DNA of 33,806 nucleotides from a virus. Its lineage: Duplodnaviria; Caudoviricetes. The position numbers and the translations under genes are program-made. Position 1 is the stretch's first letter, and each line of letters begins with the position of its first letter. Where the stretch lies: positions 1 to 33,806 of the IMG/VR virus record IMGVR_UViG_3300020044_009484. One strand, 5' to 3'. The notes under the pieces are model-generated. The model had not been told where the DNA came from and searched no databases. It saw only the letters and a program-made list of their open reading frames with translations. Positions 16,332-33,806 of this stretch are shown here, one piece after another.

Positions 16332-17309
16332 TTAGGCTACGACGCTTGCGAAGAAGGTGCCGAGGTCTGCAGCGATGACCTTGTGGTCCCATGCTGCTTC
16401 AGCCTCGATACGCTCCGACTTGAGCGATTCCATACGGAAGCGGGCGGTGCCGATTGTTGCACCGATTCCACCAGAGACGCCTGTCCAACCGAAGGTGTAA
16501 CCAGCGGATGGCTGGAGGAGACCTGCGTTTGGTGCGCTGTAGCAAAGCATCGCAGCCTTGCCATGCACGAATGAGTAAGCCTCTGAAGCGCCTTCGTTGT
16601 TCGTTGCCTTGACGGACTTGGTGACAAGCACACGGTCAACTTCGAACATACGAGCCATCATCTCTTCGGTGATGACATTCGAGGTTGTGTACTTGATGCG
16701 GTCCACGAGGTCTGGGTGGTTCTTCAACTTGCGGAAAGCCTGATAACCCAAGACGAGGGTGTTTGGCATGAAGCCTGTGGTCGAAAGAATCTTTTCCTTC
16801 GCTGCTTCGATGTCCTCAAGAGGGTCGCTATTCGCATAGTCGCTCCACTGCTTGAACTCGTTGGTTGATGGTGTTCCCGAAACGCCTGTGTAGTCGGTTC
16901 CCCACACGCCTGTTGTGAAGAAGGTTGACTGCCAATCGAGTTCCTGACGGAGAAGGATGCGGCTCGTTACGAACTCTGCTGCTTCACGGTCAAGGTTGAT
17001 TGGTGCGTCTGCGTTTGCACGGGTCTGGTCACCGACATCCTTGTGGAAAGCCCACACCTGTGCGGCGTAGGAATCGGTTGACAAGTTGTAACCGCCACCT
17101 GCTGATTCAGTCGCATCGGCACGAACTTGTGCTTCGTCTCGGAACCAGTCGTTCTTGGTGTACTTGAAGAACTTGTTGCTCTGCTTGTCCACTGGGACCA
17201 GAGGGAAAACCTTCGTTGCTACGAAGTTGTTCGCCTGCTGCATGTATGCGACCGAGATGTTTGTCAGGATTGCATCAATGTGGACGGAGGTCTGTGTTGG
17301 CTGTGCCAT
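16332..17309 (-). CDS. Major capsid protein (lambda gpE-like family)
   Basis: 325 aa: HIDAILTNISVAY..FP.VPV.KQS..W..SDP..DI..PNTLVLG..LKNHP. Follows scaffold and decoration genes. Confidence 0.9.
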   Translation of the reverse strand: MAQPTQTSVHIDAILTNISVAYMQQANNFVATKVFPLVPVDKQSNKFFKYTKNDWFRDEAQVRADATESAGGGYNLSTDSYAAQVWAFHKDVGDQTRANADAPINLDREAAEFVTSRILLRQELDWQSTFFTTGVWGTDYTGVSGTPSTNEFKQWSDYANSDPLEDIEAAKEKILSTTGFMPNTLVLGYQAFRKLKNHPDLVDRIKYTTSNVITEEMMARMFEVDRVLVTKSVKATNNEGASEAYSFVHGKAAMLCYSAPNAGLLQPSAGYTFGWTGVSGGIGATIGTARFRMESLKSERIEAEAAWDHKVIAADLGTFFASVVA

Positions 17310-17735: not shown

Positions 17736-18476
17736 TTACTTCTCTGAGAGGTATTGGTTGTAAAGGTCTGGGTTTTGAGCAACCAGTCCGCTGATTGCCT
17801 GCTCGACGGTGTTGTACTCGCCTGCGTCAACTGCTGCCTTGGCAAGGCTTGTGACCTTGCCGAACGCATCACTTGTCGTGGAGCGGTTACTTGCGCCGAG
17901 TTCTGAGAAGATTGCTGCTGCTTCTTGCTGAGCGTTAACAGCCTCAAATGCCTTCTCGATTGTGGAAGCGAGGTCCGAGTTGATGTCTGCAACCTTGCGG
18001 AGTGCAACACCGAAAGCATCGGCTTCGATAGGAAGGTTGGACCATGCTGCTGCCTTAGCGACATACGAGCGGTCACGCTGGATTTCCTTCTCCTTGCGGA
18101 GTTCTTCACGAGCCGATTCTGCGTCTGCTGCTGCCTTGGCAAGCATTTCACGCACTGGCTCTGGGAGGGACTTGATGAGTGCCTCTTCTTCGTCGATAGG
18201 AGCGTCCTCTTCTGGGTCGTTCGCATCGGCTGCCTTCTGGAGGTCAGCGATTACTTCACGAGCCTTAGCAAGTTCCGCTTCCAATTCGACCATACGGTCG
18301 ATGTACTGCTCATTGATGTCTACGACGACATCATCTTCTGCATGTGCCACTGAGTCCTCCGTGGGGTTTGCGTTCTTCATGACTATCCAACCTTCTTCAA
18401 GATGGGCAGGGTGGTCTACACCGCTGGTCTCTAGCACCTTTAGTGCCACCATCTTTTTAGGCGTCTTTGCTGTCAT
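17736..18476 (-). CDS. Scaffold protein with N-terminal protease-like segment
   Basis: 246 aa, acidic coiled-coil with many hydrophobic-x-K-A/S sites. N-terminal LKVLETSGVDHPAH resembles the EvSlVdxPAn strand of HK97/XkdF proteases. Confidence 0.75.
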   Translation of the reverse strand: MTAKTPKKMVALKVLETSGVDHPAHLEEGWIVMKNANPTEDSVAHAEDDVVVDINEQYIDRMVELEAELAKAREVIADLQKAADANDPEEDAPIDEEEALIKSLPEPVREMLAKAAADAESAREELRKEKEIQRDRSYVAKAAAWSNLPIEADAFGVALRKVADINSDLASTIEKAFEAVNAQQEAAAIFSELGASNRSTTSDAFGKVTSLAKAAVDAGEYNTVEQAISGLVAQNPDLYNQYLSEK

Positions 18477-18585: not shown

Positions 18586-19755
18586 TTAGTGGACTGGGTT
18601 GTTGATGTACTCGATTGTCACTTTTGTTGGGCGCTTGTAGAAGCCGAACGATTCATCTTCGCTGGACCGCTCAACGCTTGCGATGAAACTGACCTTGTCA
18701 CCTGTGTGGCAGTCACTGATTTTCGAAGGGCAGGTGCCCCAGACCTTGAAGCCTCGGTCATCCTTGACTGTCATCACCGAGCGGTAACCCCAATCGGTTT
18801 CCTTGAGGCTGACCGAGACGACTGTGCCTGTGATTTGGACCTTGTCGCCAGTGATTACTGGAGTCTTGACTTCAATCTCTCGGGCTGCCTGCTCTGCAAT
18901 CCAACCGAGGTGGCGGCGGTAGGCGGTGAGGAAAGAAGCGATGAGACCGTGGTACTTGCGCTCCGAGAGGTCGTACTTGAAAACCGTCTGAAGGTTTCTG
19001 AGGTACTCGCTGTCAGCCTCAAGGTCGAGAATCCACTGGATGGCTGCTTGTGCCTCGTCACGCTGCTCGGCGGTCATTGCTGGGACATCGTCGAAGCCTC
19101 GGTTCGACATCAGGAAGGCTGCCATCTGGTTCTTGGTGGCTGCACCTTCTTGGTCTGCCTTGCGGAAGCCCATGTGGTTGATGAGGGTGGCTGCTGCCAT
19201 CGCATAGTCGATGACGCTGTAGCGGCTGCCGCCACCACCGCCACGGCTACGACCGAACATCTCGTCATCGTCCAGAATCTCGTCGAGTGTCTCGTACCAG
19301 TGGAACTTGACCTTGTGACCGAGGAAGTCAGTCATGCAGGTCGAACCGACTTGAACTTCGGTGCCATCTTCGCTCTTGAAGAAGTAGGTGCGGAGGCGGA
19401 GGCGGTCAACATGGCACTGGTCGCATCGGCTGGTCACCGTGTTGAGATGAGTGAGGTCCATGTCTCGGAACTCGGGAGCAACTCGGACCATGTTCACGCC
19501 CTCGGCGATGTGGTCGATTGCCGCTACGAACTGATAGCCACCAGCAACGACTGGGTAGGCGTTGAGGATTTCGACATTGAACCAGACCTCGGTGACGAAG
19601 TCGTCGTCCTTTTGGGTGGTGGTTTCGAATCGGTCAAGGATGACAAGTTCAGGTGCTGGAGCGTCAATCTTTGCAGCGATTTTTGCGAGTTTGGCAACTG
19701 CCTCTTTGAGGTCATCGACCTTGTAGGCGAGGATTGTGGCTGTCATTGTGGTCAT
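18586..19755 (-). CDS. Hypothetical non-structural protein with Cys cluster and C-terminal OB-like domain
   Basis: 389 aa: CDQCH..R.RTY..QVGSTC; C-terminal GDKVQITGTV..VKDDRG..GDKVSF.A.V. Strong AAGGAGG RBS. Confidence 0.75.
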   Translation of the reverse strand: MTTMTATILAYKVDDLKEAVAKLAKIAAKIDAPAPELVILDRFETTTQKDDDFVTEVWFNVEILNAYPVVAGGYQFVAAIDHIAEGVNMVRVAPEFRDMDLTHLNTVTSRCDQCHVDRLRLRTYFFKSEDGTEVQVGSTCMTDFLGHKVKFHWYETLDEILDDDEMFGRSRGGGGGSRYSVIDYAMAAATLINHMGFRKADQEGAATKNQMAAFLMSNRGFDDVPAMTAEQRDEAQAAIQWILDLEADSEYLRNLQTVFKYDLSERKYHGLIASFLTAYRRHLGWIAEQAAREIEVKTPVITGDKVQITGTVVSVSLKETDWGYRSVMTVKDDRGFKVWGTCPSKISDCHTGDKVSFIASVERSSEDESFGFYKRPTKVTIEYINNPVH

Positions 19756-19805: not shown

Positions 19806-19945
19806 GCCCTAAGCGGCGTAATCAACGGAACCATTCGCACAGGGTGATTTACCTTCCTGTCCTTGCGAGCGCAGATTGGCGGCTCCGACGGTTTGACCTC
19901 TGTCGAAAATTGCTGCCCGCACTTCGGGCACTTGTACTTGTGCAT
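19802..19945 (-). CDS. Small Zn-ribbon protein, 47 aa (not in ORF track)
   Basis: MHKYKCPKCGQQFSTEVKPSEPPICARKDRKVNHPVRMVPLITPLRA*; TAATG overlap with the upstream stop. Confidence 0.55.
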   Translation of the reverse strand: MHKYKCPKCGQQFSTEVKPSEPPICARKDRKVNHPVRMVPLITPLRA

Positions 19946-20196
19946 TATTGCTTCACCCATTCCATCTCGATGCAGTATTTCATGTCCTGCATAATCATGC
20001 CCCAGACCTCGCTCTTCGGAATGTCACAGAGGTCGTGACCGCTGAAGCCAGTGGTGCCATCTTCCAAGAGATAGCCCTCTGGAATTTCAATCCAGTAGTT
20101 GACACCGAACCAGTCGCTGGTTCTTCCCTCTACCTCAAGTTTGAGATTGTGGGCAGCGGCGAAGGCTTCGCACTTCGCTTTTGTTGATGTTGCCAT
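19945..20196 (-). CDS. Hypothetical protein (83 aa)
   Basis: The likely start is ATG 20196 (MATSTK) after AAGGAGG, with extended -10 TGGTAAACT upstream (~20223-20231). Confidence 0.65.
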   Translation of the reverse strand: MATSTKAKCEAFAAAHNLKLEVEGRTSDWFGVNYWIEIPEGYLLEDGTTGFSGHDLCDIPKSEVWGMIMQDMKYCIEMEWVKQ

Positions 20197-20335
20197 TGGG
20201 TCCTCCTTTCCCTTACATCTCCAGTTTACCAGATGGAAAATTGGACAAAGGCTAGGGGACCGTTGATTCATAAGGGTTTTGACTTCCCGACCTCGGGAAA
20301 CCCTTTGTTTGCAGGTGTGACCAAGTTCACACTAA

Positions 20336-20579: not shown

Positions 20580-21269
20580 TCACGATTTAAGTTTGTCCAA
20601 CTTTCGAACGGCTTGTTCCAACATTGACGCCATGTTCTTAAACACTTGAGCGTCCGTGAACAACCTTGCCGACCGAGTCATAATCCATTTGCCATTGGCA
20701 TCTTTCTTGGGACCGCCCTCTGCAAGTTGCAAATCTGCGCCTTTTTTCTTCGTTCTGGTCGATAGTGACTTCAATCGTCGTGACTCTTTGACCAAATCAC
20801 CTCGGACCTTTTCAATTGGAATACCAAATTCCAAAGATTGTTGAGCCTCAGCAAATGTTTTGCGGGTTCCTTCAACAGCGGCTAAAGCGTCGCCCTTTTC
20901 AGCACCAAATCCTGCTTTGTCATAAGCCCGATTGATTGATGTCTCGTTGTCGGCAAAAAGAAAGTCGTCATCAAAAACGCTTGCGAAGCGAGACTTTTCT
21001 GGTTCGACGGCAGCACCGCCTGCAGCAGTGGTGCCACCAGATTCTGTTTGAGTTTTTTTGCCCCAACGAATTGACGCTGCGTAAGCCCCAGCCGCTGAAC
21101 GGTTACCACCGAACGATTGCTTGGCTTTAATCAACTCGGCAAGAGCGACGCTATTTGTCAAGCCGCTGATACTGCCAGCCTTTTGGACCTCTTGAACAAC
21201 AAACGCATAACCGAGGTCGGTCATGAAAGGACGAAGCGCCTCAAGAATAAGTTCGTCGGGCGTGGTCAT
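20580..21269 (-). CDS. RWG-tag protein: helical EVxKAG domain + tag + unknown payload
   Basis: LIKAKQSFGGNRSAAGAYAASIRWG at ~aa 46-70. Confidence 0.8.
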   Translation of the reverse strand: MTTPDELILEALRPFMTDLGYAFVVQEVQKAGSISGLTNSVALAELIKAKQSFGGNRSAAGAYAASIRWGKKTQTESGGTTAAGGAAVEPEKSRFASVFDDDFLFADNETSINRAYDKAGFGAEKGDALAAVEGTRKTFAEAQQSLEFGIPIEKVRGDLVKESRRLKSLSTRTKKKGADLQLAEGGPKKDANGKWIMTRSARLFTDAQVFKNMASMLEQAVRKLDKLKS

Positions 21270-21877
21270 TCTGCTTGTTGTGCTCTCTGCGTCAACGAAG
21301 TAGCAATCTTTCCAATCACCTCAGCAAACTGACCGACCGAAGGCGGAATGTTCTTTTTAGGCAAAACCAAGCCGATAGTCCTCGAAGCCAATCTCGCATC
21401 GCTCGCTGCTCGCTGCGCTGCAACAGGGGTGACTTGCGTAGCCCCAGCGTCGTCGGACCTCTTTGCGTTACCAACAAGGCGAACCACTTCCATCACTCGT
21501 TGATGCTCAGGATGGTCAGGTCCTAAATCTGCCAAGGCTTTACTGCCTGCGTCGTCTGCTTCTTTCCAGCCAGATGCCCCAACCGTCGAAGCGGTCCGTG
21601 AACCCAATGGCTTCGCATCGCCTGCTCCACGACCTCCCCATCGAACTCGGGCGGCGTAAGCGCCTGCTGCTGAACGGTTGCCGCCAAACGAAGTGCCGAC
21701 TCCAGCGACGATTGCTGCCGCTGTCTTTTCAAGCAATTCACGGGCAACACCTGTGGTGTTCATAATGCCGCCAGCCTTTTCGACCTCCTCATGGAGGAAA
21801 CCGATTTGCTGCTCAGTGAGAATCTGTGAAAGTGCTGGTGCCATGGCGTCCAACACATTTTTGTCTTTTTCGTTCAT
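21266..21877 (-). CDS. RWG-tag protein: helical EVxKAG domain + tag + unknown payload
   Basis: EEVEKAGG..SFGGNRSAAGAYAARVRWG; ATGA overlaps at both ends. Confidence 0.8.
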   Translation of the reverse strand: MNEKDKNVLDAMAPALSQILTEQQIGFLHEEVEKAGGIMNTTGVARELLEKTAAAIVAGVGTSFGGNRSAAGAYAARVRWGGRGAGDAKPLGSRTASTVGASGWKEADDAGSKALADLGPDHPEHQRVMEVVRLVGNAKRSDDAGATQVTPVAAQRAASDARLASRTIGLVLPKKNIPPSVGQFAEVIGKIATSLTQRAQQAE

Positions 21878-22458
21878 GCTGCCTCTGCGTAGAAAGCGTC
21901 TGTGTAATCAACAACTAACCGCTTGAGCATCTCGTGAAGGCGCTTTACAACGCCTTTGGCACCTTTTGCCTCTGCCAAGGGTCGAACACGGAATTCGGCT
22001 GCCGATGCAAGGTTCCAAGCACCAAACGCATCGCCAGTCACATCAGCCTTAGATGCAGCCTTGACCTCTTTCTGGGCAAGGACCAATTCTCGACCAACGG
22101 GAGAATCTGCACCTACAGCGGCGATTGCTGCCGTGTGAGTCTCGCCAATCTTTTCCAAGTTCATGGCTTCGCCAGCACCAGCGGGATTCGATGTTGCTAC
22201 TGCACCATCAGAAGTCCCTCCTTTGCCCCTCTTACCCCACCTGATGCTCGCTGCATAGGCTCCTGCGGCAGAACGGTTACCACCGAAAGATTGACGCTGT
22301 GCAGCCTTCTGAAGGACCGTCTGGGCGTAGCCCTGAACCTTGAGAACGCTGCCCGCTTTGCGGACCTCATCGATGACGCCAATCCATTCACGCTCGGAAA
22401 CGATTTCCAAGGCGGAATGGTGCAACGCATAAAGAAGTCGAAGGTCGGCGTTGTTCAT
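21874..22458 (-). CDS. RWG-tag protein: helical EVxKAG domain + tag + unknown payload
   Basis: DEVRKAGS..LQKAAQRQSFGGNRSAAGAYAASIRWG. Confidence 0.8.
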   Translation of the reverse strand: MNNADLRLLYALHHSALEIVSEREWIGVIDEVRKAGSVLKVQGYAQTVLQKAAQRQSFGGNRSAAGAYAASIRWGKRGKGGTSDGAVATSNPAGAGEAMNLEKIGETHTAAIAAVGADSPVGRELVLAQKEVKAASKADVTGDAFGAWNLASAAEFRVRPLAEAKGAKGVVKRLHEMLKRLVVDYTDAFYAEAA

Positions 22459-23111
22459 CAGATTTTCTTTGCAGCCTTAGCGATGATTTCGGCGGCGTAA
22501 CCAGTGGTGTGGCGGATTCCCCCAGCCTTAGTTACTTCGTCAAGGACGATTGTCCACTGAGCGTCGGTGAGGTCTGTGTGGCGGCGTAATTGCTTGAGAA
22601 TCATGTCGTCAGCCTGAGCCAAAACAGCCTTTTGGACGCCAACTGAAGAGCGCAACTGCCATGCCCATTTCTGGGTGATGTCGATACGACCAGCAATGAA
22701 ATCTGCGACGCCCTGCTCGTTTTCTGAGGTTGCCACATCAAAAGTGCGCTTCAAAGTGCTGATTAAACCGTCGATTTCACGGAGAAGGTCTGTTGCCATG
22801 GCTTGGGGGTCATTGGCTGGAGCGCCCTCGGCGATGGTTCGCATGGAGACCAATTCGCTCATGTGGAAAGGTGCGTCGGCTTGAATCTTCAGCATGTTTT
22901 CGGCAATGTCGTCGATTGAGCCGTAAATGTCCTCGTAGACCTCTGCAAATAAACCGTGATACTGCGAGAAGTCCTGACCCTTGACATTCCAGTGATACCC
23001 GTGAGCGTCGTGGTAGACGGTGTACGAGTCAGCAAGCAATGTACCGAGGGCGATTGACAGCGGAGATACCACTGCCTTGTGCATCGCATCGGGGGTTAAG
23101 GGTTCAGTCAT
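22458..23111 (-). CDS. dps: Dps/ferritin-like protein with C-terminal EVxKAG domain
   Basis: Dps signature HGYHWNVKG.DF.QYH.LF.E.YE..D.IAE and K.AWQLRS, plus a ~55-aa C-terminal extension. Confidence 0.85.
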   Translation of the reverse strand: MTEPLTPDAMHKAVVSPLSIALGTLLADSYTVYHDAHGYHWNVKGQDFSQYHGLFAEVYEDIYGSIDDIAENMLKIQADAPFHMSELVSMRTIAEGAPANDPQAMATDLLREIDGLISTLKRTFDVATSENEQGVADFIAGRIDITQKWAWQLRSSVGVQKAVLAQADDMILKQLRRHTDLTDAQWTIVLDEVTKAGGIRHTTGYAAEIIAKAAKKI

Positions 23112-23158
23112 GGTTTGATTCTTCTTTAGTTTCGAAAGTCCGACAAGCAGACGGTTCT

Positions 23159-23374
23159 TTAGTTAAACGATGGGATTTCGTAGAAAGAGCCTTCTGGGGC
23201 TGGGTTTTGCTTGACATCCTCAGCAATAACATCCCAAGCCTTTGACTCGTCCTCTGTTTGTAAATAAGCCTTCTCTTTAGGCAGATTGTTCAGAATCATG
23301 GCGTAAATCTGTTCGATTCGACGCCCTTCAACCTCAACCGATGCCCAAAAAGCAATCAATTCATCAGTAGTCAT
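23159..23374 (-). CDS. Small acidic protein, possible antitoxin of the zeta-like domain
   Basis: 71 aa, TAATG-coupled directly behind the zeta-like domain. Confidence 0.55.
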   Translation of the reverse strand: MTTDELIAFWASVEVEGRRIEQIYAMILNNLPKEKAYLQTEDESKAWDVIAEDVKQNPAPEGSFYEIPSFN

Positions 23375-25563
23375 TACTGTCCTTTCGCTAAGAAGTCGGC
23401 ATACGCCTTCTCATCATGTACAACTGTACTCTTGCCTTTGCCGCCCGAGAAAATCAGGCGTGGCGGTGTGCCAGATGTATCAAACAATGTTGCCGAATCG
23501 AATTGTCCAACAACATTAGGGAACACTTGAGAAACGCCTCGGTGTGTACCTACGGTAATTGATTCGTTGACATAACGACCCTGACCACGACCTGTCCATG
23601 TGCTTGGGTCTTTGGGGTTTTCGCCAGCCTTGGCGTATTTCTCACCGACGGGTAAACCACGAGTTCTTGCACGGTCCACAGCCACAGCCGTAGGTACAGT
23701 CGCATAAACGCCCGTGACCTTGTAATTATGAGATGCGCCCTCGGGGTCACGAGCATTGCGAACATTGTCGATTTTGCTTGTCATGCTCTTGGATGAGTTG
23801 TCGCCCGTTCCGTCAAGAATGACATTGAAACCGCTTTGAATAGCCCTGTCGTTTACAGCCTTAGAAAGCAACGACGATTCTTCGTGGACAGTTGACGCTG
23901 CTGCCATTTGACCAACACGACCGTCTACACCTACGCCGCCCTTAGAGTCTTTTCCGCCAACAAGTTGCTTGTATGGGGGAAGTTCTCCCTTGATTTCGTC
24001 TGCGTTGATAGCAACTGAGTGAGAGTCGGTGCCTTTGCCGCCACGAGAGTCTGAGCGGTTTGTACCGTTTCCAGCCCATTCTGGACCTGCGCCTTCGGCG
24101 AGCATCGATGACTTACCAGATGCTGGACCGCCGCCCATGAACACATACTCTGGCTGACCAGTTGGTGGTGTTTTGCGGCTGCCATCTTCGTTTACAAAGT
24201 GGCTGTCAATGATTTCGTCGTGGAGAGCGGCTCTTTGCGGCGAGATGTGCTTCCGCAATGTTTTGTAGTCAGGGTCGTGTTTTGTTGGGTCTAGCCCTTG
24301 AGAAACCATGTCTGCAGCCAAAGCATCGAAGTCACAATGTGTCTGCAGCGAAGCAAACTTTCCTTGCTGAGCCATACCGCCATCGGTGGCTGGCTCGCCG
24401 AATGGTCCCTTGCCAGCGGCTGCAACGCCCACAGCGGCTGCTTGCTGCTCACGCTTCGGGTCAGAAGCAACTCGACCCCAGCGAACCTGCGCTGCATAAG
24501 AACCCGCTGCTGAGCGATTGCCGCCAAATGTTTGCTTGGCTTTTGCTACTTCAGCAAACGCATACTGCGCTTTGTCGAAAGGCAATGATTCGAGACGCTT
24601 GGAACCTGTTGCCCAGAAACGCTCACCGTCAGTGCGGACAATGGCGACCGAGCCGTCATCACCGTACAAACCAGCGACATTGAACACCTTGTCGTTGAAT
24701 GATTTCGACAACGGGACAATCGCATACTTGACGCCATCGATGATGATTGACTTTGTCACCTCTGGTTCAGGCTCAATGATTTCGGCGGGTCCGCCGCTAA
24801 TGAGATTGCGGACAGCGTCCTTCAATTGGTCGGCAAGTGACACAGCCTCTTTGCGGGCTGTTGTGCGCTCGGTCTTTAACTTCTCTGCGTATTCGGCAGC
24901 AACGCTTGCGGTAGAGAAACGGTTCTTGACGACACCGCCAAAGCCGCTATCTGTTGGGATGCCCATTTCGACACGGGCTGCTGAGCCGCCGATAGAAAAG
25001 CCTGTGATTTTGTTTTCCTTGACCATGTCCCAAGCCCAGTCGTTCCACTTGACACCGAGGAAAACGGTGCCTGCTGGATAGGTCACTTCCTTGGAATCGC
25101 CCTGTGCCTTCTTCATGTTGAGGGTTACGGGGACAGGGAAAGACATGGCTTCGACCCATTCGCCAGCCACAATGTCTGTGTTGTGCTGTAGGCGGATGTC
25201 ACGGTCACCAAGGCGGACATAGTCCCAGAGAGCCTTCTGGAGTTCGTCGGCGTCTGACCATTCGCCGTGGGCATCTTCCTTGTTGGGGATGTACCAAGGA
25301 CCGAGGGTGAACTTTTGTTCTTCGTTGGCTTTGTGAATCAGGTCCATCGCATCGGCGGCGGGCTTCTTCTTCTTTTGAGGTGTTTTCCAGTTGACGCCGT
25401 CTACATGGACGCCGCTGGAGGTTGGGTCACCCTTTTCAACGCCTTCTTCTTCAGCGATTAGTTCGTCGATGACTGTCTGGACGGTTGGGTCCATGTCGTC
25501 CCACTGAAGGGTGCCGTCAATCCATGATTGGGCTTGGGCAACGAGGTTGTTAATTGTTGGCAT
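23374..25563 (-). CDS. XkdF-type prohead protease fused via RWG tag to a zeta-toxin-like P-loop kinase
   Basis: Protease ~24970-25330: EEQKFTLGPWY.P..DAHGE..LQH..GTVF.GV.W..W..VK..ITGFSIGG. Kinase: MGGGPASGKSS, INADEIK, HEESS, VILDGT, RA..R..GRYV. Confidence 0.88.
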   Translation of the reverse strand: MPTINNLVAQAQSWIDGTLQWDDMDPTVQTVIDELIAEEEGVEKGDPTSSGVHVDGVNWKTPQKKKKPAADAMDLIHKANEEQKFTLGPWYIPNKEDAHGEWSDADELQKALWDYVRLGDRDIRLQHNTDIVAGEWVEAMSFPVPVTLNMKKAQGDSKEVTYPAGTVFLGVKWNDWAWDMVKENKITGFSIGGSAARVEMGIPTDSGFGGVVKNRFSTASVAAEYAEKLKTERTTARKEAVSLADQLKDAVRNLISGGPAEIIEPEPEVTKSIIIDGVKYAIVPLSKSFNDKVFNVAGLYGDDGSVAIVRTDGERFWATGSKRLESLPFDKAQYAFAEVAKAKQTFGGNRSAAGSYAAQVRWGRVASDPKREQQAAAVGVAAAGKGPFGEPATDGGMAQQGKFASLQTHCDFDALAADMVSQGLDPTKHDPDYKTLRKHISPQRAALHDEIIDSHFVNEDGSRKTPPTGQPEYVFMGGGPASGKSSMLAEGAGPEWAGNGTNRSDSRGGKGTDSHSVAINADEIKGELPPYKQLVGGKDSKGGVGVDGRVGQMAAASTVHEESSLLSKAVNDRAIQSGFNVILDGTGDNSSKSMTSKIDNVRNARDPEGASHNYKVTGVYATVPTAVAVDRARTRGLPVGEKYAKAGENPKDPSTWTGRGQGRYVNESITVGTHRGVSQVFPNVVGQFDSATLFDTSGTPPRLIFSGGKGKSTVVHDEKAYADFLAKGQ

Positions 25564-26557
25564 CGAGGAACTCCTTCTGAGCAGCCAAGGCTAATTCGCA
25601 TGCTTCGGTGAATACCAGCGCCTTGCCCACGGGTGTGGTGTGGTCTGCGAAACCACGGCGTGAAATACCGTTTGCAATGCCCCATTTGTCCATCACATTC
25701 AAAAGTTGTTTTTGTGGGGCGTTGATTCTGATGATGGAGATTTGTGTTGGTCGCATCGTCGACCCGAGGGCTGCTGCAGCCCAGCGGTGATGTCCGTCCA
25801 TGACGAAACCGTCTGACGAAACGACAATTGAGCCAGTCGGGTCCGCTGAGAAGGCTTTTGCTCCCCGAGCGGATTCCCTGCCCAGAATTTCAGCGGATGA
25901 TTTGCCGTTGATGTCTTTCTGGGTTGGCTTGAGAGATGCTGGGTCGACCGATTCGTGAGAAACCGTTAGCCCTTGCTTTTTGACATCTGCAATGAATTCG
26001 GCTTTTCGAGCGGTTGGGACCTGCGGCATGTCCTCACGATTTTTTGTCCCTGCTATCGCATTGAAGAACAATGTGCCTGTGATTTGGACATCTGAAAGGT
26101 CCTCTGAGCCGTCGCCAGAAGCCAGACCTTGGACATACGACGGGACTTGGTCCTTGCCGACTGTGGTCAAAGGGGGCTTAGTGCCGCCCTTGCTACCCCA
26201 GCGAACCTGTGCCGCATAGGACGCTGCAGCAGAACGAGACCCAAATTGACGCTTTTGGATGTCATGTTCGATGAGGTCGCTCTTGATGACCCAGAGTTTG
26301 CAGAGAGCCATCGGCTCAATCTGCCCCTCAACGATTTCGCATGCCTGACCGCCTTCGTAGAACGAGCAGTTGGCACACATCAAACCCTCTTCGGCAAAAG
26401 GGTTTTCGTTTTCCGACATGTAATGGGCACCGTCTGGACCGCTTGACTGGTCAAACATGCCAAACGCATCGACGATGATTTCAAGCGACTGATACAGAGC
26501 CTGTTGGCGGGGTGTCAGGTCGTCGATTTCGTCCACTGCTGTATCGTACCGACCCAA
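25550..26557 (-). CDS. HiPIP-like Cys4 domain + RWG tag + ParB/Srx-like domain
   Basis: CANCSFY..ACEIVEG.I.P.ALCKLW; then R.DMPQV, LKPTQ, IVVSSDGFVMDGHHRWAA. Start uncertain (GTG ~26536 possible). Confidence 0.78.
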   Translation of the reverse strand: MGRYDTAVDEIDDLTPRQQALYQSLEIIVDAFGMFDQSSGPDGAHYMSENENPFAEEGLMCANCSFYEGGQACEIVEGQIEPMALCKLWVIKSDLIEHDIQKRQFGSRSAAASYAAQVRWGSKGGTKPPLTTVGKDQVPSYVQGLASGDGSEDLSDVQITGTLFFNAIAGTKNREDMPQVPTARKAEFIADVKKQGLTVSHESVDPASLKPTQKDINGKSSAEILGRESARGAKAFSADPTGSIVVSSDGFVMDGHHRWAAAALGSTMRPTQISIIRINAPQKQLLNVMDKWGIANGISRRGFADHTTPVGKALVFTEACELALAAQKEFLDANN

Positions 26558-26584
26558 CTATGGTCAAGCCGTACTACAGGTCGG

Positions 26585-27250
26585 TCAAGCCATCGGCTTG
26601 TTTTCAAGAACATAAAACTTGGCTGCAAAATTCATCATTGCCGATTGAATCTTGTCGACGATTGCACCAACCGCTGGAAAATCTCTTCCGTATTGCCCTT
26701 GGGTTCCAAATTTCCAGCCGATGTCATCTGCCTTGTTTTGTATGTTGCCAACTCTTTTGACCGCTGAATCACCAGAATTACGAAAATTTCCGACATGATT
26801 GTAAAGTTCGTGAGCCTTATCGCCATTGACTTTCGCAGGGTTCACATGTGCCGTCATAATCTCTTTATGGACAATTGGAGAAATTTCTTTCAAAGCGTCC
26901 AATTCTGGTTTTATTTCGTCTTTGAAGTCTTGACCCATTGGGACTCCACGCTCTGCTGCTGTCGGAGGTCGTAATCCACCATTTTCCTGTTCGACAGCCA
27001 ATTCTCCGTTTGACATGACATGCACTGGAGAGTCAGTAATAAGTCCATGAGTTGACGATGTAGAACCTGATTCTGCTTGGCGAGCGCCCCAACGAGCACG
27101 AGCGGCATAGCGTCCAGCCTCTGAACGGTTACCTCCAAAGGATTGTGCCTTCTCAAGGTGCAACGCATCCTCGGCAGACATCTCATTGCCATCCTCGTCG
27201 ATGAAGGTCAGACCCATCAGTCCGTCGTATTGAAAGTTTTCTTTGCTCAT
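26585..27250 (-). CDS. RWG-tag protein with unknown payload
   Basis: Short acidic leader, then LEKAQSFGGNRSEAGRYAARARWG. Confidence 0.8.
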   Translation of the reverse strand: MSKENFQYDGLMGLTFIDEDGNEMSAEDALHLEKAQSFGGNRSEAGRYAARARWGARQAESGSTSSTHGLITDSPVHVMSNGELAVEQENGGLRPPTAAERGVPMGQDFKDEIKPELDALKEISPIVHKEIMTAHVNPAKVNGDKAHELYNHVGNFRNSGDSAVKRVGNIQNKADDIGWKFGTQGQYGRDFPAVGAIVDKIQSAMMNFAAKFYVLENKPMA

Positions 27251-29577
27251 TCCATTACCACCTTAATGACTTTGGTGTAGTTCGGTCTGTTCCGACCGCC
27301 GAATTGGTTTGGTTCATCACTGATTGCCCAAACTTTGAACTTTGCCTTACGAGGTAATAGTACCTCGTGTTCCGTCTTGTGCATACTTCTTTTACCCAAG
27401 ATAGGGTTCATCGGCAAAACTTTTGTGCCTTTTCTGACCGCAATTTCGAAGCGGATGCCAGTTATTCCGCCCCACTGTTGGGCAAGAGGCAAGGATGTTG
27501 AGGTTGATGTGAATCCCTCGTCAGAGAATGATTCACCGACTTTCAAAAGAGAGAAGAATCGAACCGCTCTTTCGCCGTCTTTATTTCGACCAAAATCCAC
27601 TCCACGGTGAACAATCAAGTCTGTGGGCAGAGGTACGGCTGCTTCGAAAGCACGGTCCACACCAACCGCTGCAGCGGTTCTGTCGTTGCCGTCACGAAGT
27701 TCAGCATTGATTACCTTGCCCCTCATTTGGTATGCGACAACGGAGTCTCGATTTTTCATGGACATGATGCCGTCAGAACCCTCTGGGTACATCGCATCGA
27801 GAATCTGGTTGGCGTCATCTCTGCTACGAAATGGCACTGTTGACGGGTCGAACGCTGGGGTTTCTTCCCCTGCTGTGTTCCCCCAGCGAATTCTGGCGGC
27901 GTATTGGGCTGCTTCTGACCGTGAACCGAAACGACGCTCACGGGCTTTTTCCACTCCGCCAGCGGGTTCAAGGACAAAGGTCAAGGTGAGACCTTCGCCA
28001 GAGATGTTTTGCCACTCGCCGTATTCCCGTTTGACTAATCGCATACGGGTGTTGCGGGGGAGAAGAACTTCTTTCTCTCCTGCGTAGGAATGTTTGGTGC
28101 CAATCATTGTGTTGATGGGCAAGACTTTGCTGCCTTCTGGACAGACAACTTTGAATCTGATTCGGCTTCTAGCGCCGAATTCATCGCCGATTTTGGTGCT
28201 GGTGGAAGTTGAGCCGAACGCTGGGTCGCTAAAGGATTGTCCAACTTTCATTCCGTCAAAGAAGGCAATTGTTGCTTTTCCGTCGTCGGTGAAGTTTTTG
28301 ACATCCAAGCCTCGGTGCAGGACTATTGCCTTGGTTAGTGGTTCTGCAGCCTCAAAAGCGGAATCAATTTGTCCAACCGTTGAATAAGGTCGAATGACTA
28401 CGCCTTCTTTGGCTTGTCCTCGGAGAGCGCCATTGATTGCCCAGCCTTCATCGGTGTATTCCCTGATGGCTGCTTCATGACCTGATGTGAATGGGTAATC
28501 CTCAGAATCAGAGTATGGATACAAACTGTCTAGGTATTGCTCCATCTCGTTGGAGGTGACTTCTCGTACTGAGAGGGGGTCAAACTCTGGTGCTTTCTTA
28601 CCCCAGCGGACCTGTGCGGCATAACGAGCAGCGGCGGAACGGTCCCCGCCAAACGACTGCTTAGCCTTGTCCAGTTGCTCTGATTTGACTGCTGCTGCAA
28701 AACCAGAACCGTCATCAGTTAGCGCCGTTGAGTGAACAATCTTTTTCCCTTCGAAAGTCATTTTCTCCGCTGCGGTCAGCATCGCCGTGGCGATACCTTT
28801 GCGTTTCCAACCGTCAGTGACAGCAATGTGGGTGATTTCAACCTCTCCAGTTGGCTTTCCAACAGTCAAATTTTTACTTCTGCCGTGCAGTTTCAGTTCG
28901 TTCGCATCGAGATACCCAATCTTTTGCCCATTGACATAAGCGTCAACTCGGGCACTTTGAACTCCAAGTCTGTATTCAGGCGTGAAATTTGGGTCATCAG
29001 CCAAAGCGGGCGGTAACCAATTTGGTTCTTTATCATAGTCTCTGTTTCCAGAAGCACGAAGTTGGACCTTGTCGCCATCTTCTGTAATGAATTCAAAATC
29101 GCCGCTTCTAACTTGCTCGTTTCTTTCGCCTTTTCGCTCATAAAATTCGCCAACTTGTGTAATGACTGCTCGGCGAGATTCAGACGGAGATTCTGTTTTT
29201 GTTCGATTACCCCAGCGAACTTGGGCAGCGTGACGACCTGCAGCAGAACGGTCCCCACCAAAAGAAGCCTTCTCGATGTCGTTCGCATCAGGGAAAATCA
29301 AATCGTCGCCGACGGTTACATCTGACTGTGGATTGAGGATGGTCTGGAAATCGGCGACCAGAAACACGGCTTCAGAAATAACGGCGTAAGCGCCCGATTC
29401 GTTATCCAGACTGGGTTTCACCATGATTACGGCTGAGCCGCACGGCAAGTTGTAGCCCTCAGCAATTAGGCGGTCGATGATTGGTTTGACCGTCGGGATG
29501 GTGCATCGCATGGACCCGTTGGACCATTCGGCTTCGTGGAAAACGCCGTCAACTTGGAACTCCCAGATAAGACTCAT
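27247..29577 (-). CDS. Polyprotein: GNAT acetyltransferase + two VIP2/Alt-like ADP-ribosyltransferases, each preceded by an RWG tag
   Basis: GNAT: IAV..GWKRKGIATAML. ART1: INGALRG/LHRG/STST/EKEVLLPR. ART2: INAELR/VHRG/STST/EHEVLLPR (R-STS-ExE). Confidence 0.88.
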   Translation of the reverse strand: MSLIWEFQVDGVFHEAEWSNGSMRCTIPTVKPIIDRLIAEGYNLPCGSAVIMVKPSLDNESGAYAVISEAVFLVADFQTILNPQSDVTVGDDLIFPDANDIEKASFGGDRSAAGRHAAQVRWGNRTKTESPSESRRAVITQVGEFYERKGERNEQVRSGDFEFITEDGDKVQLRASGNRDYDKEPNWLPPALADDPNFTPEYRLGVQSARVDAYVNGQKIGYLDANELKLHGRSKNLTVGKPTGEVEITHIAVTDGWKRKGIATAMLTAAEKMTFEGKKIVHSTALTDDGSGFAAAVKSEQLDKAKQSFGGDRSAAARYAAQVRWGKKAPEFDPLSVREVTSNEMEQYLDSLYPYSDSEDYPFTSGHEAAIREYTDEGWAINGALRGQAKEGVVIRPYSTVGQIDSAFEAAEPLTKAIVLHRGLDVKNFTDDGKATIAFFDGMKVGQSFSDPAFGSTSTSTKIGDEFGARSRIRFKVVCPEGSKVLPINTMIGTKHSYAGEKEVLLPRNTRMRLVKREYGEWQNISGEGLTLTFVLEPAGGVEKARERRFGSRSEAAQYAARIRWGNTAGEETPAFDPSTVPFRSRDDANQILDAMYPEGSDGIMSMKNRDSVVAYQMRGKVINAELRDGNDRTAAAVGVDRAFEAAVPLPTDLIVHRGVDFGRNKDGERAVRFFSLLKVGESFSDEGFTSTSTSLPLAQQWGGITGIRFEIAVRKGTKVLPMNPILGKRSMHKTEHEVLLPRKAKFKVWAISDEPNQFGGRNRPNYTKVIKVVME

Positions 29578-32500
29578 GCTGACGCCATCACTCCCAGAAC
29601 GAACGCCATGTGGTCGTTATCGAAATTGTCTCTGTTGCCGCCAAGCACTTGTTCGAATCCTGTGGTCATAATTTCAAAGGCTGGGTATCGGCTGTTATTT
29701 TCTTGGTCTCGGAAAAGACCCGTTTTGCGTGTTGCCCTGTCATAGCGGCGTCCGCTGTACAGATTCGAGAATGTGTCTCGGTCAAGTTCCAGTGTTTGCC
29801 CGCCTACGGTTTTTGCTCCGACACGAGTTTCACGCTTTGTGGACCTGACACGAGATGTTAAAGATGTGTTCTTTCCGCTGATGTCAAAACCTGTTGTTCT
29901 GTGGGTGATGAACGCCACTTCAAGGGCTGCGATAGCGGGGCGGTAGTGAGTGACGAAGTGTTGGGTTTCGTGTCCAATCACTCGAAGATTGTCTTTTTCT
30001 CCTCTTCCGTTGATGGTTCCCATTGTCGGGATGTTGATGACGGGTTGTGTTACAGAACCTTGCGGGATGCTGAATGAGCCGTTACTGACGCCGACATGAG
30101 AGTTCAGTTGAACATTTGAACCTTTTGTGGCGTTGGTCCAATCGGTTGGCATGACTTTGCCGACTGTTGAGAACGCTCCAAGGGTGTCTTGAAACGCCAC
30201 AGGGCTGGTGGCAAGGGTGTGTGGGGCTGTTGGGGCGAAGTCGAAAGTGCCGCCACATGGTCGAACTTCGGCGACTACCTGCTGCATTGCTTTCGCATAA
30301 GCGTCGTGCAGTTGCTCTTTGTCTGTTTTGTCCAGAGTGCCTGCAGCGATTTGTTGTTTGACACGGTCGACTGCTTCGATGTTCATTTTGTCGCCCAGAG
30401 CAATCGCACGGTCGTGAAGGTCTGCCACTTTTGGTGATGGAATCATCTCTTCGTTGGCGGTGTTGATTTGAATGTCGCCTTTTTCGTCATTCCAAGCGCC
30501 TTTTGCCTTCGGATTTCTGATGCTCATTGGGCTGGACCGTTGCATGTTTTCGAAACTGACCGATTGATTCAGCAGAAACATTTCTTTGCGTAGCGCCTCG
30601 GCTTCCTCTCGCATCGCCTTCATGTGAGGCTTTTCAGCGGGTGTATCACTAGATGTTGTGCCCCAGCGGATACGGGCTGCGTATTGAGCGGCTTCGGCAC
30701 GAGTAGAGAACTTGCGCTTACGACCCTTCTCAACGACCAAAGAATCAACGGCATCCCAGATACGAGCAACAGTGTTATTCAGGTCAACCGTCGACGATTT
30801 AGCAACATCTACTGGGTCAGGAAAAATTTTGAACTTGCCTGCTCCGTCTGTTCCGTCGCCAAGGATGACAATTGGAATTCCTTGTTTTTTAGCGGCTTTA
30901 ACTAACGCTCTGGACGGTTTTGTGCCAGAAAAGGCAATGTAGGAAATGTCCGACAATTTCAAACCGCCGTGGATTTGGGCTTCGGCATAACGAACAGGCT
31001 TGCCTTGTGAAACCTGACTCAGCCATTCACTGGAGTTGGTTGGAGAAGATTCATCTGTCCTCACCCGCAATTGACCCGAGGTAATTCGTCCGTTTACAGG
31101 TGAAGCCGCACGAACATTCTTCAGCGAATCAAAATTGGTGAAAGTGGAGCGGTCACCAACTTGTGGTTTTGCAACAAATTGAACGGTTCCGTACTGACTT
31201 GAACCGTTTGCCCCGCCGTGTTGAATACCCAAAGGATGAAGGCTCGCATAGATAGGGCGACGAGAAGGCTCAGCCAGAGGGTGAACACCAAAACTTGCTG
31301 CTTCGTGGACCGCTCGCATACCAAGGCTTAGTGTTCCACCACTCTGCTTTGTTTCGAACTGCGTGGTGATGTGCCCAGTTTCCAAAATGCTGACAGCGGT
31401 CTTTTCGCTACGAGTCAAAGCAATTTTCTTCATTGGAGAGGCAACTAGAAGTTTTGTGTCGGCAATTGCCTCTGCAGAGCGACCCGCTTCTCTAATTTCC
31501 ATGTGACGCCCCATCGTCGCATTTGCCATTGCGTTAGCAAGATTCTGTCTGTTCTGTTCTTGCTGACCGTTGTAGGTGTAATGATTATCGTAAACATTTG
31601 ATGGATGATTCGGTGGCTTTATTTTCTCTGGCTCAAAAGCAGCCATCAGAGAAAAAGCGTCTCCTGAATCTTTGCTATTGGCATTGGTCTGGTCAGTATC
31701 GAAGCCTCTTTTTTCCAGTGATTTGATTGTTTCTGGAGACAAGCCATCCGAGTTGAGATGTCCGAGGTAATAGGCATTTAGTTCTTTGTGCAAGCGGTAG
31801 TAATCACTTTGTGCGTTTCCAGAATCAATCACCATGGAACCGTTCTCAAGGGCAATTAGACCCTCTTGAAGGTGTGGCGGCATGCCCTCAAAAGTAAATG
31901 GGATGTACGGTGCCCCTGTTGCGATGGCGACATTGACATCCATCGTTGGAGGGGGCAGTGCATCTAAAGCATCGTTTCGTGTTGTCGCATCAGTGCTTCG
32001 GTTGCCCCAACGAATTTGAGCGGCATGACGCCCAGCCTCAGACCGTGAAGCAAATCGGCGTTCACGAGTTTTTTCTGTTGGTTCTGCTGGTTCGGCAACA
32101 ATGTCCCACGGTTGCGAGAACATCGAATAAATGTTGAGAACTGGTATTTCTTTACCAAGTTCGTCGATGACATGACCTGACGGGAATGTTTCCTCAAGCG
32201 GCGTTCCTGCTCGCAGGGTCGTGAACCCTGTTTGATACAAAGAGCGTTCGCCGTCGGTGGCAATCAATCGCATCATGCCGCTCTTGGCAACCTCGGCAGG
32301 TTCAGGAAGAATTTTCATCTTGCCTGTTCGGTCCCTTGGTTCTGTGCCAATCGAAATTACGGGGATGCCATGTTTTGCGGCTCTCTGGACCAAATCACTT
32401 GTTCGTCTGTTTGCCACGATGTAAGCAACATCAGAAAGTCTTACGCCACCATGGATTTGCGCTTCCGAATACTCCGTTCGGTCACCACGCCTAATTTTCC

Positions 32501-33806
32501 CAACTTTGTCCGAGGGATGAATTGGAGCATCTTTGGGGAACTTGCTGTATGGGTGTGCTTGACCCTTGTTGATTGGTCCTCGTACTGGCGAAGGATTGCG
32601 ATTTTGCCCAAGAGAATCAACAACCGAAAATGTTGAGCGGTCCGAAACTTGTGGTTTCATTACCAACTGAATAGTTCCGTATTGGCTTGCTCCCGTGGCA
32701 TACGGGTGTTGAACACCAACAGGATGAAGCGTCGCATAAACAGGTCGACGGTCAGGCAATGTTGCTGGGTGTGTGCCGTAGGCAACGGCTTCATGGGCTG
32801 CTCGACCTTTAGGGTTGTATGCCCCTTGGCTGCTTCTAGTTTCAAACTGAGTGGTGATTCGACCTCCAGTAAGAATTGCTGAGGCACCTGCTTCGGTGAC
32901 CGTCATTGCAATTTTCATTTCTGGGTGAGATACCAAATCTTTGGTGTCTTTTAGAGCCTCTGCCTCTTGACCGATGAGATACTGATTTTCTCTGTGACGA
33001 ATAACTGTTTGACGAGCCATGCTGCTGGCAAGGTCAAGGCGCTCACTAGCACGGTCTTGGTCTGCTTGTGTTCCTGTATTCGGCTTGAATTGCTGATAAT
33101 GCTTACCGAATTTTCTCATTTCGGCTTGATTCTCTGGAGAAATGTTGTCTGGACTCAACACTTTTGAGTAGTAAGCAGTGAGTTTTGCTTCAAGCACCAG
33201 TTCTTCGGTGTACGGCAGACTGCTCGTTTCTGTTTTAAGCAGACCCTCTTGAATGTCTGGGGGGAGACTTTCAAACAAAAGCGGTTTGTATGGAGCGCCA
33301 GTCGTAATTGCCTCGTTGACATCGTCGGTCGGCTCCATTGGAACACCATTCGATGCTGCAGAAGCGTTCGCATTGGGAGTTGTAGTCCCCCATCGAATTC
33401 GTGCAGCGTATCGAGCGGCTTCTGCTCTCGAAGCGAATTGCCTCTTACGACCTTTTCCCAATGGTTCGTCTGGAGTATCAATGATTTCCCAAGAATCATC
33501 TCTAAACATCGCATAGATGTTCTTAACTGGGATAATCACGCCCTCTTCGTCAACAACATGACCTGTTGGGACGGTTTCCTCAAGGTCCGTGCCTTGTTCG
33601 TCGTGAATCTTTTGCAGACTCGTGAATTTGTTCGCTAGGTTCTGCGCTTTCGCCGTGGACTCTTTCAGTGCGTCCACGCCCTCCCATCGCCGCCCGGTGA
33701 ACTTTGCGGAATTGAACTTCCAAAACTTCGCGAGCGGCAGAGCGACCGCCTGAGTAGTCAACGCCATCTTCAACCACTCCGCGAAGATGCGGCGCTCAGC
33801 AGTAGA
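29574..33806 (-). CDS. Large polyprotein: two DUF3626-like domains + HExxH domain, each preceded by an RWG tag (5' end beyond window)
   Basis: The frame stays open past TTG 33773 to the window edge (STAERRIFAEWL). Duplicated TQFET..S.G / RP.YA.L / QYG / Y.EAQIHGG domain; GHETQH..YSGR.Y..FEIMTTGFE at the C-terminus. Confidence 0.8.
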   Translation of the reverse strand, partial: STAERRIFAEWLKMALTTQAVALPLAKFWKFNSAKFTGRRWEGVDALKESTAKAQNLANKFTSLQKIHDEQGTDLEETVPTGHVVDEEGVIIPVKNIYAMFRDDSWEIIDTPDEPLGKGRKRQFASRAEAARYAARIRWGTTTPNANASAASNGVPMEPTDDVNEAITTGAPYKPLLFESLPPDIQEGLLKTETSSLPYTEELVLEAKLTAYYSKVLSPDNISPENQAEMRKFGKHYQQFKPNTGTQADQDRASERLDLASSMARQTVIRHRENQYLIGQEAEALKDTKDLVSHPEMKIAMTVTEAGASAILTGGRITTQFETRSSQGAYNPKGRAAHEAVAYGTHPATLPDRRPVYATLHPVGVQHPYATGASQYGTIQLVMKPQVSDRSTFSVVDSLGQNRNPSPVRGPINKGQAHPYSKFPKDAPIHPSDKVGKIRRGDRTEYSEAQIHGGVRLSDVAYIVANRRTSDLVQRAAKHGIPVISIGTEPRDRTGKMKILPEPAEVAKSGMMRLIATDGERSLYQTGFTTLRAGTPLEETFPSGHVIDELGKEIPVLNIYSMFSQPWDIVAEPAEPTEKTRERRFASRSEAGRHAAQIRWGNRSTDATTRNDALDALPPPTMDVNVAIATGAPYIPFTFEGMPPHLQEGLIALENGSMVIDSGNAQSDYYRLHKELNAYYLGHLNSDGLSPETIKSLEKRGFDTDQTNANSKDSGDAFSLMAAFEPEKIKPPNHPSNVYDNHYTYNGQQEQNRQNLANAMANATMGRHMEIREAGRSAEAIADTKLLVASPMKKIALTRSEKTAVSILETGHITTQFETKQSGGTLSLGMRAVHEAASFGVHPLAEPSRRPIYASLHPLGIQHGGANGSSQYGTVQFVAKPQVGDRSTFTNFDSLKNVRAASPVNGRITSGQLRVRTDESSPTNSSEWLSQVSQGKPVRYAEAQIHGGLKLSDISYIAFSGTKPSRALVKAAKKQGIPIVILGDGTDGAGKFKIFPDPVDVAKSSTVDLNNTVARIWDAVDSLVVEKGRKRKFSTRAEAAQYAARIRWGTTSSDTPAEKPHMKAMREEAEALRKEMFLLNQSVSFENMQRSSPMSIRNPKAKGAWNDEKGDIQINTANEEMIPSPKVADLHDRAIALGDKMNIEAVDRVKQQIAAGTLDKTDKEQLHDAYAKAMQQVVAEVRPCGGTFDFAPTAPHTLATSPVAFQDTLGAFSTVGKVMPTDWTNATKGSNVQLNSHVGVSNGSFSIPQGSVTQPVINIPTMGTINGRGEKDNLRVIGHETQHFVTHYRPAIAALEVAFITHRTTGFDISGKNTSLTSRVRSTKRETRVGAKTVGGQTLELDRDTFSNLYSGRRYDRATRKTGLFRDQENNSRYPAFEIMTTGFEQVLGGNRDNFDNDHMAFVLGVMASA

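Follow-up and report, generated by a model that had tools for sequence, protein, structure and literature searches.

A recurrent basic helix behind candidate protease sites marks an exchangeable array of putative head cargo enzymes in a tailed phage

Our analysis of a viral contig (IMG/VR record IMGVR_UViG_3300020044_009484; Duplodnaviria, Caudoviricetes) uncovered an array of enzyme-bearing cassettes, each headed by a copy of the same short basic helix, hereafter the tag. The analyzed window is the entire contig of 33,806 bases, which carries late genes only: according to Pfam and PHROG these are minus-strand genes of a tailed phage, including those for a tape measure, a tail tube, a capsid protein, a product at the scaffold position and an XkdF-type prohead protease. 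The array lies within positions 20580–33806 of the same strand, on which its parts and the portal, scaffold-position and capsid genes given below also lie. The tag and its cassette layout are real, widespread and undescribed. Judging from the comparisons below, it is highly probable that the tagged enzymes are cut from their precursors and packaged as cargo of the phage head; as to the whole chain of events that we propose, including a tethering of the enzymes to DNA by the helix, we are evenly divided.

The tag has the core R-S-x-A-G/A-x-Y/H-A-A-x-x-R-W. A six-frame scan found 19 RWG tripeptides in the window. Of these, 12 carry the motif, and they belong to eight minus-strand open reading frames (ORFs) between 20580 and 33806; the core pattern, matched by 11 of the 12 copies, had no match in 2000 shuffles of the eight proteins. 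The count of 12 copies in eight genes given in a preliminary description, made from the letters alone, is thereby borne out, as is its claim that synonymous codons differ between the copies: 426 of the 611 same-residue codon pairs among the 12 cores use different codons, and this free variation implies that selection acts on the peptide. That the motif stems from repeated or recently duplicated DNA was ruled out by this codon divergence together with a DNA identity of 50–79% among the cores and a longest exact common stretch of 17 nucleotides. In AlphaFold models the tag is a single helix on a low-confidence linker, separate from the payload; it has an invariant Ala face plus Arg, Tyr and Trp, a net charge of +2 to +6, and a Gly/Ser/Thr-rich linker behind it.

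A profile of the 12 copies retrieved 256 protein clusters at E ≤0.001, 56 of them at 1e-10. In the best 150 of these 256 clusters, 79 carry 2–4 tags and just 5 of 264 tags come closer than about 40 residues to a C-terminus; Pfam recognizes among these 150 DUF3626, VIP2-/DRAT-like ADP-ribosyltransferases (ARTs), GNATs, zeta kinases, HExxH peptidases, ferritin, XkdF and MuF, alongside many blanks. Other loci add a topoisomerase IB payload and a MuF chain bearing six tags, and related loci together hold 226 tagged modules in 65 sequence clusters, many without a family, a count that includes truncated pieces and some non-cargo proteins. The topoisomerase payload (L170:9144-10277) is the catalytic core of that enzyme, and its own acidic leader follows it. 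Of 43 mapped tagged loci, which overlap one another and were counted apart from single-tag Mu-like and non-cargo loci, 41 contain a portal, MuF, XkdF, scaffold or capsid gene as a head marker, and their tags share its strand. The tags either lie between MuF and the scaffold or form a second cluster upstream of the portal; one such upstream cluster (L115:16704-19537) also features a DUF6321 basic domain behind a Lys-type site. Moreover, tagged modules occur fused to MuF (P0036, P0049, L175), to the portal (L007) and to the protease. The profile search thereby places the tag near head genes and ahead of diverse enzymatic domains, as the preliminary description had expected. A pattern scan of a genome collection yielded six loci, namely one tagged portal, which occurs in an Akkermansia genome record, three non-cargo proteins and two without a convincing ORF. 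None of the 12 copies matched a PHROG or a PDB sequence, and the one Pfam match (E 0.12) is due to chance, all with 32-residue queries of low power. Likewise, we found no description of the tag or of its literal strings in the literature, subscription journals and the external supplements of PMC5512222 lying outside the search. In the preliminary description, too, the tag was not recognized as a described system.

Each tag sits just behind a hydrophobic-x-Lys sequence followed by a small or basic residue, which we consider a candidate cut site. By a strict rule that places this site within 12 residues of the tag, 10 of the 12 window tags have it, the exceptions showing a Thr at the first position or lying 16 residues away. 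Across the window and related contigs, whose sequences are related rather than independent, a site lies within 12 residues of 65 of 70 tags versus 9% of background positions, and it is present at 237 of 266 tags in the best 150 of the 256 clusters. The spacer between site and tag varies from about 1 to about 10 residues (8 being commonest, 40/70); hence, the site and the helix are separate elements. The gene at the scaffold position (17736–18476; the unnamed PHROG 13547) has seven sites of the form hydrophobic-x-K followed by A or S, versus 1.0 expected, a number reached in 0 of 1000 shuffles; the protease gene has 10 versus 3.4 expected, and tail proteins display no enrichment of the site. 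The XkdF-type prohead protease domain itself is part of gene E (24967–25344; PF14550, E 3.8e-13), matching its profile with 50 bits against a cut-off of 24, which confirms the earlier placement of a prohead protease inside the block. Its IRLQH and GFSIGG sequences, which we take to be the His and Ser catalytic motifs of the family, are intact. Since the same type of site fills the scaffold, each payload is likely released by the XkdF protease and would then begin with the tag. The protease of phage HK97 is related to the XkdF family. In HK97 the capsid protein is described as cleaved at K103/S104 (PMC10275583). We found no paper that links XkdF with a cleavage site in the open literature, subscription journals being outside the search.

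A Mu-like prophage of Akkermansia provides a parallel from a different head type. Here the tag is on the C-terminal tail of the portal, behind the sequence D-T-N, a pattern picked after inspection of the sequence that is enriched in the prophage’s own protease-scaffold (6 versus 0.45 expected), where Lys sites are not enriched. Hence, in two head modules that are unrelated to each other, one of the XkdF/cap-E type and the other of the Mu type, the tag comes behind whichever type of site prevails there. The tagged basic tail of this portal (L007:8354-10471 and L069:4354-6375) comprises about 140 residues without a family match, and the portal has many IMG/VR copies with two tail variants (L009).

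Comparison of the loci shows that payloads are exchanged at the tag. Gene E and its counterpart in one relative (L057) are 93% identical up to the tag and 31% thereafter; similarly, the first 125 residues of gene B are 88% identical to a gene (L050) that carries an HExxH payload in place of the GNAT. More generally, one type of leader plus tag carries a GNAT, an ART, an HExxH or an unassigned payload in relatives. Among 10 leader families with at least three members each (63 cases, confined to closed, abutting gene pairs), 46 cases share the commonest preceding payload of their family and 25 its commonest own payload. Many leaders thus travel with the preceding enzyme, and the swapped unit therefore runs from tag to tag.

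The leaders that follow this pattern are small and acidic. The N-terminal 103-residue domain of gene B (29269–29577) is linked to the HExxH payload upstream: all 10 of its profile matches, including those in a distant phage group, are immediately preceded by an HExxH domain, and its type forms a stand-alone gene in another locus (L119). It folds confidently in a model, for which neither the PDB nor BFVD returned a fold match. The N-terminal 34-residue peptide of gene C (27149–27250) follows ART payloads, and in the close relative L011 this leader stands alone, untagged, behind an ART. Behind the zeta kinase comes an untagged, acidic 71-residue gene (23159–23374), likely an antitoxin; over 23 cases (counting only kinases with a following ORF of at least 40 residues), tagged zeta kinases and the acidic ORFs behind them show parallel levels of identity, and the ORF is swapped together with the kinase allele. 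A layout of this kind has been described for the toxin–immunity pairs of MuF toxins (PMC5576092, PMC12226406), and on the strength of this match the small acidic partners are likely inhibitors or immunity proteins of the enzymes upstream of them.

The window’s modules map as follows, with a slash marking the candidate cut. Gene A (29574–33595), whose true start is lost and which in relatives begins about 22 codons earlier, directly after MuF, encodes a polyprotein of three site–tag–payload modules: LGK/G with tag 1 (33387–33461) heads the first DUF3626 payload, an atypical TEK/T with tag 2 (32004–32078) heads the second (30798–32003), and VEK/G with tag 3 (30660–30734) precedes the HExxH payload, a zincin-type metallopeptidase (29574–30659). 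In gene B, IEK/A with tag 4 (29209–29277) heads the GNAT, LDK/A with tag 5 (28600–28674) the first VIP2-type ART and VEK/A with tag 6 (27880–27954) the second, there being no leader between these payloads. Gene C has LEK/A with tag 7 (27086–27157) before a payload without a family (26585–27085). In the ParB-like gene, IQK/R with tag 8 (26195–26260) stands before the ParB-like payload (25550–26194) and behind a four-Cys leader (26261–26557), which resembles HiPIP by weak Pfam and PDB matches and is joined in relatives by another conserved domain. In gene E, VAK/A with tag 9 (24475–24549), the point of the allele swap, heads the zeta-type kinase (23374–24474). Genes F (21874–22458), G (21266–21877) and H (20580–21269) share a generic leader of 50 residues and carry payloads without a family behind LQK/A with tag 10 (22234–22314), LEK/T, 16 residues before the core, with tag 11 (21635–21733), and LIK/A with tag 12 (21060–21134), respectively. 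The mapping of one tag per payload holds throughout, also within the polyproteins, and 7 of 9 gene junctions overlap, both as noted at first sight. The block also includes two untagged genes, the kinase partner and a Dps/ferritin-like gene (22458–23111; PF00210), which has four Lys-type sites and ends in a copy of the generic F/G/H leader. In relatives ferritin and tag are fused (P0062, P0079, P0099). It is conceivable that the Dps-like protein is itself packaged and protects the DNA.

As for the identity of the payloads, Pfam recognizes the two DUF3626 domains, the two VIP2-type ARTs, the zeta kinase and the XkdF protease, and the HExxH payload is secured by its H/E/H and distal E (H230, E231, H234, E329), which are invariant in 16 of 16 aligned sequences. 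Two of the identities first proposed are less firm: the GNAT is a weak match just below the cut-off, and the ParB-like payload has no Pfam match, being recognized from an unnamed PHROG and a DGHHR motif that we assume to be ParB-like. Four payloads of the window have no family by Pfam and further searches; homolog searches for two payloads gave 4 and 3 matches only, the gene C payload had nothing above the bar in the ESM atlas, and sequence searches of the PDB with the HExxH, ParB-like and DUF3626 payloads returned nothing significant. A model of the second DUF3626 payload (pLDDT 82.7) matches SopF (Foldseek E 1.3e-5; in VIA Z 11.8, rmsd 3.5, 197 residues aligned) and DarT (Z 9.5), and DUF3626 has an invariant Y-x-E-x-Q near its C-terminal strand. 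We hence predict an ADP-ribosyltransferase fold for DUF3626, a shared fold that shows no function. With the two VIP2-type ARTs, this would bring the ART-fold payloads of the window to four, so that the “12 unrelated payloads” of the preliminary description each have their tag but are not all unrelated. ART, GNAT, zeta, HExxH and ParB-type domains all belong to the stock described for phage polyvalent proteins and head-packaged ARTs (PMC5512222, PMC9503650).

The helix is also found beyond such cargo. A near-identical version of its 13-residue core occurs in HNH, P63C, MT-A70 and Lin1244/DUF6291-type proteins as well as in small basic ORFs. HNH and MT-A70 proteins are DNA-associated, and P63C and Lin1244-type proteins mostly so. 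An atlas feature lead to DUF6291 scored 0.83, below the reliability bar. In these proteins the helix is often C-terminal or in tandem, and we liken it, presumably as a comparable device, to the short helices of the KGG or NUMOD kind. One HNH protein (L073:5869-6522) has two tandem copies at its N-terminus, a layout that to us resembles the DNA-binding modules of homing endonucleases. The preliminary description had named a spread of the motif across non-structural genes as grounds for giving up its reading; such a spread does exist in part, but the cut site is missing in 13 of 13 non-cargo proteins, which were hand-picked, five with a Pfam family (one of them weak) and eight by architecture alone, their neighborhoods being unannotated.

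We propose that the enzyme cassettes would be loaded into the prohead by fusion to MuF, the portal or the protease, or by generic leaders, and that the XkdF protease would then cut after hydrophobic-x-Lys, leaving the basic helix at each new N-terminus. The helix could hold the enzyme on the packaged DNA as a tether, by which it would be retained and co-injected with the genome, and soon after entry the ART, GNAT, kinase and peptidase payloads might target the new host or its defences. The partner inhibitors would restrain the enzymes while still in the producing cell and, being untagged once cut off, would stay behind. In its fullest form, namely an array that arms itself, with each enzyme made beside its own inhibitor, the head protease freeing the inhibitors in the prohead and the tagged pieces alone clinging to the genome for injection by way of a borrowed DNA-binding helix, we advance the proposal only tentatively. 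That the tag acts after cutting, on each product, is suggested by its presence on every module, including those fused to MuF, portal or protease, where one loading signal per chain would suffice, and by tags 5 and 6, which only the site separates from the previous payload. DNA tethering is our best guess for what it then does, given the kin of the helix in DNA-associated proteins, its basic charge and the precedent of the T4 internal proteins, which contact packaged DNA via lysines and for one of which, IPI*, a DNA-bound ejection has been proposed (PMC3012670). The preliminary description had left three roles side by side, packaging, DNA binding and ejection, within a reading of the array as exchangeable cargo loaded into the virion. 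The cargo part is upheld by the head markers of the mapped loci and by the payload swaps at the tag; a packaging signal is the weakest of the three roles because the tag is C-terminal to the likely cut, occurs once per module and sits on payloads already fused to MuF, portal or protease. DNA binding or ejection would fit better.

This bears on the most serious alternative, in which the tag is a loading address that binds the portal, MuF, the scaffold or the inner face of the capsid before the cut and has no later role. A constant motif on very different cargo within head modules would suit such an address, the Ala/Gly face of the helix, with its conserved Tyr and Trp, could pack on a protein, and the capsid targeting of T4 offers a precedent (PMC3012670). 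Nevertheless, we deem it unlikely: the tag lies C-terminal to the likely cut and stays on the product, it recurs 2–6 times per chain and on cargo already fused to MuF, portal or protease, and the same helix serves two unrelated head modules. The tight coupling of tag and site, with its preferred distance of 8 residues, could alternatively mean that the tag is part of protease recognition, as an extended prime-side or exosite element, or that it protects the new N-terminus. However, the scaffold sites do without a tag, the spacer is variable, the tag lies behind an Asn motif in a phage whose protease belongs to another family and the 13 non-cargo proteins have the helix without any site, all of which makes this role distinctly improbable. 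Little probability, too, attaches to the idea that the tag serves translocation or homing by binding a protein, be it of the portal or tail channel, the tape measure or, once the phage has entered, a target in the host: an N-terminal position after the cut and a Gly/Ser/Thr-rich linker do suit a leading end for threading, but the helix is common to cytoplasmic non-virion proteins and to phages of different tail and head types, and no partner protein was identified as co-occurring in both groups. Finally, an unpackaged late toxin–antitoxin or exclusion array, whose tag binds DNA in the cell or is mainly a recombination handle, would account for toxin-like enzymes with cognate small partners, for exchange at the tags and for the helix in non-virion proteins, but is very improbable in view of the in-frame fusions to MuF, portal and protease, the site common to cargo and scaffold and the free codon variation, which places selection on the peptide.

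Several observations weigh against our proposal of cut, tethered and inhibitor-paired cargo. On the side of cleavage, 2 of the 12 window tags depart from the strict site rule, genes A and B show no enrichment in sites over their full length, and the capsid protein has no propeptide that could anchor the specificity of the protease. On the side of the partners, a detectable one lies behind only 12 of 27 HExxH domains, and not all leaders fit, as the F/G/H leader is generic and the gene A type tracks its own DUF3626 payload. The linkage of partners could also partly arise by hitch-hiking if crossovers fall at tags; homology break points are modestly enriched there (5 of 22 downstream ends versus 10% of the block). 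As for the tag itself, DNA binding is deduced from the company that the helix keeps, no structure of it or paper on it having been found, and a tblastn search with one 32-residue copy, a short query of low sensitivity, matched no cultured phage. Moreover, the phages Laroye and ValentiniPuff build the same head module without the tag, which is therefore dispensable for this head type. The generic F/G/H leader, for its part, is the best candidate for a removable loading peptide.

Turning to the surroundings of the array, the close relative L011 has the order Mu-type portal, MuF and tagged block including the protease, and in further relatives the tagged block is followed by scaffold and capsid; in the window the major capsid protein is encoded at 16332–17309 (Pfam, PHROG). 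Relatives’ contigs about 90% alike over pieces of the tagged block were found in four lake or freshwater runs. The protease domain is 58–60% identical to those of Arthrobacter phages of the Laroye group; this resemblance and an Rpf-like transglycosylase recognized by Pfam, encoded among the tail genes (9616–10182), make an actinobacterial host likely. In Laroye itself, gp18 (L075:11269-12390) is annotated as an RNA ligase/aldolase, but its C-terminal part is an XkdF-type protease, so that gp18 is a domain fused to the head protease; the gene at the MuF position of this phage has a long C-terminal extension.

At the other end, the window closes with a fragment of a lambda-type portal (33596–33806; PHROG portal match, 36–40% identical to Roseobacter/Rhodobacter phage portals) that lies outside the tagged system and continues in frame into gene A through a short stretch that the two have in common. 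Relatives 95% identical up to 33595 lack it, and contigs in 4 of 4 runs, which contain relatives of the phage rather than the same strain, diverge from the window at that position. The final 211 bases are hence probably a chimeric end from mis-assembly, the formal alternative being a true recombinant at 33595, and we rejected a portal–payload fusion at the window’s end. Between the cargo block and the scaffold are non-structural-looking genes (18586–19755 and 19945–20271), the larger of which matches unnamed PHROGs. The tail genes include one for a secreted-looking PA14 protein with a Thr-rich stalk (1–1239), and the tail-fibre genes one for a Ser/Gly/Thr repeat protein of 602 residues (12648–14456).

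The array names a candidate signal by which small tailed phages might choose the internal proteins that leave with their DNA. It implies exact N-termini for the mature products and assigns candidate inhibitors to enzymes; the tag offers a search handle for cargo enzymes (256 protein clusters), and DUF3626 gains a predicted ART fold. Were the self-arming form of our proposal true, a tag of 13–20 residues would be a portable signal for the co-delivery of any protein with phage DNA, it would work in heads of unrelated types, and recombination from tag to tag would bring dozens of kinds of enzyme, many of them undescribed, into this route.

Among known systems, the array parallels the MuF polymorphic toxins (Jamet et al. 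2017, PMC5576092; Zhang et al. 2012, PMC3482391; the Apk2 work, PMC12226406) in having variable enzymes in a head module, a small partner ORF directly behind the enzyme and a proposed loading into the head. The constant N-terminal part and variable C-terminal enzyme of these toxins are matched by cassettes with the same leader and tag but different payloads, and their small cognate ORF directly downstream is matched by linkage only and not for every payload. Unlike them, the window proteins have no MuF domain, MuF being a separate upstream gene in L011, although the distant tagged proteins P0036, P0049 and L175 do carry it. Further, the cassettes form arrays of about ten, mostly unfused to MuF and each with its own site and tag, and the partner often shares one reading frame with the module that follows it, a joint not mentioned for MuF toxins in the consulted sections of these papers.

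The array likewise recalls the phage polyvalent proteins (Iyer et al. 2017, PMC5512222; Iyer et al. 2022, PMC9503650), in which multi-enzyme chains near late genes comprise ART, GNAT, zeta kinase, ParB-type and HExxH domains. Genes A and B similarly encode at least two disparate effectors per chain among virion genes. In the sections consulted, those papers propose an HExxH peptidase as the processor, whereas here every joint has the motif of the head protease and a retained tag. One tagged protein has a sub-threshold ART-PolyVal match.

In T4, the capsid targeting sequence is cut off during maturation. As far as the available descriptions go, the T4 internal proteins and Alt with that sequence and the gp245-processed head proteins of SPN3US (PMC3012670, PMC10052503) share with the array, on whose side processing, injection and DNA contact are predicted, a diverse cargo, a constant short peptide, processing by the prohead protease, injection and a contact of basic residues with DNA. 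As in T4, the cargo bears the same motif that fills the scaffold, at the level of the motif only. The site type differs, being Lys rather than Glu here. Moreover, the T4 sequence targets precursors to the core, whereas the window tag lies after the cut, stays on the product and recurs in polyproteins. Because the tag is kept, the array is not a member of the T4 capsid-targeting family, and the closer analogue of the T4 targeting sequence is the generic F/G/H leader rather than the tag.

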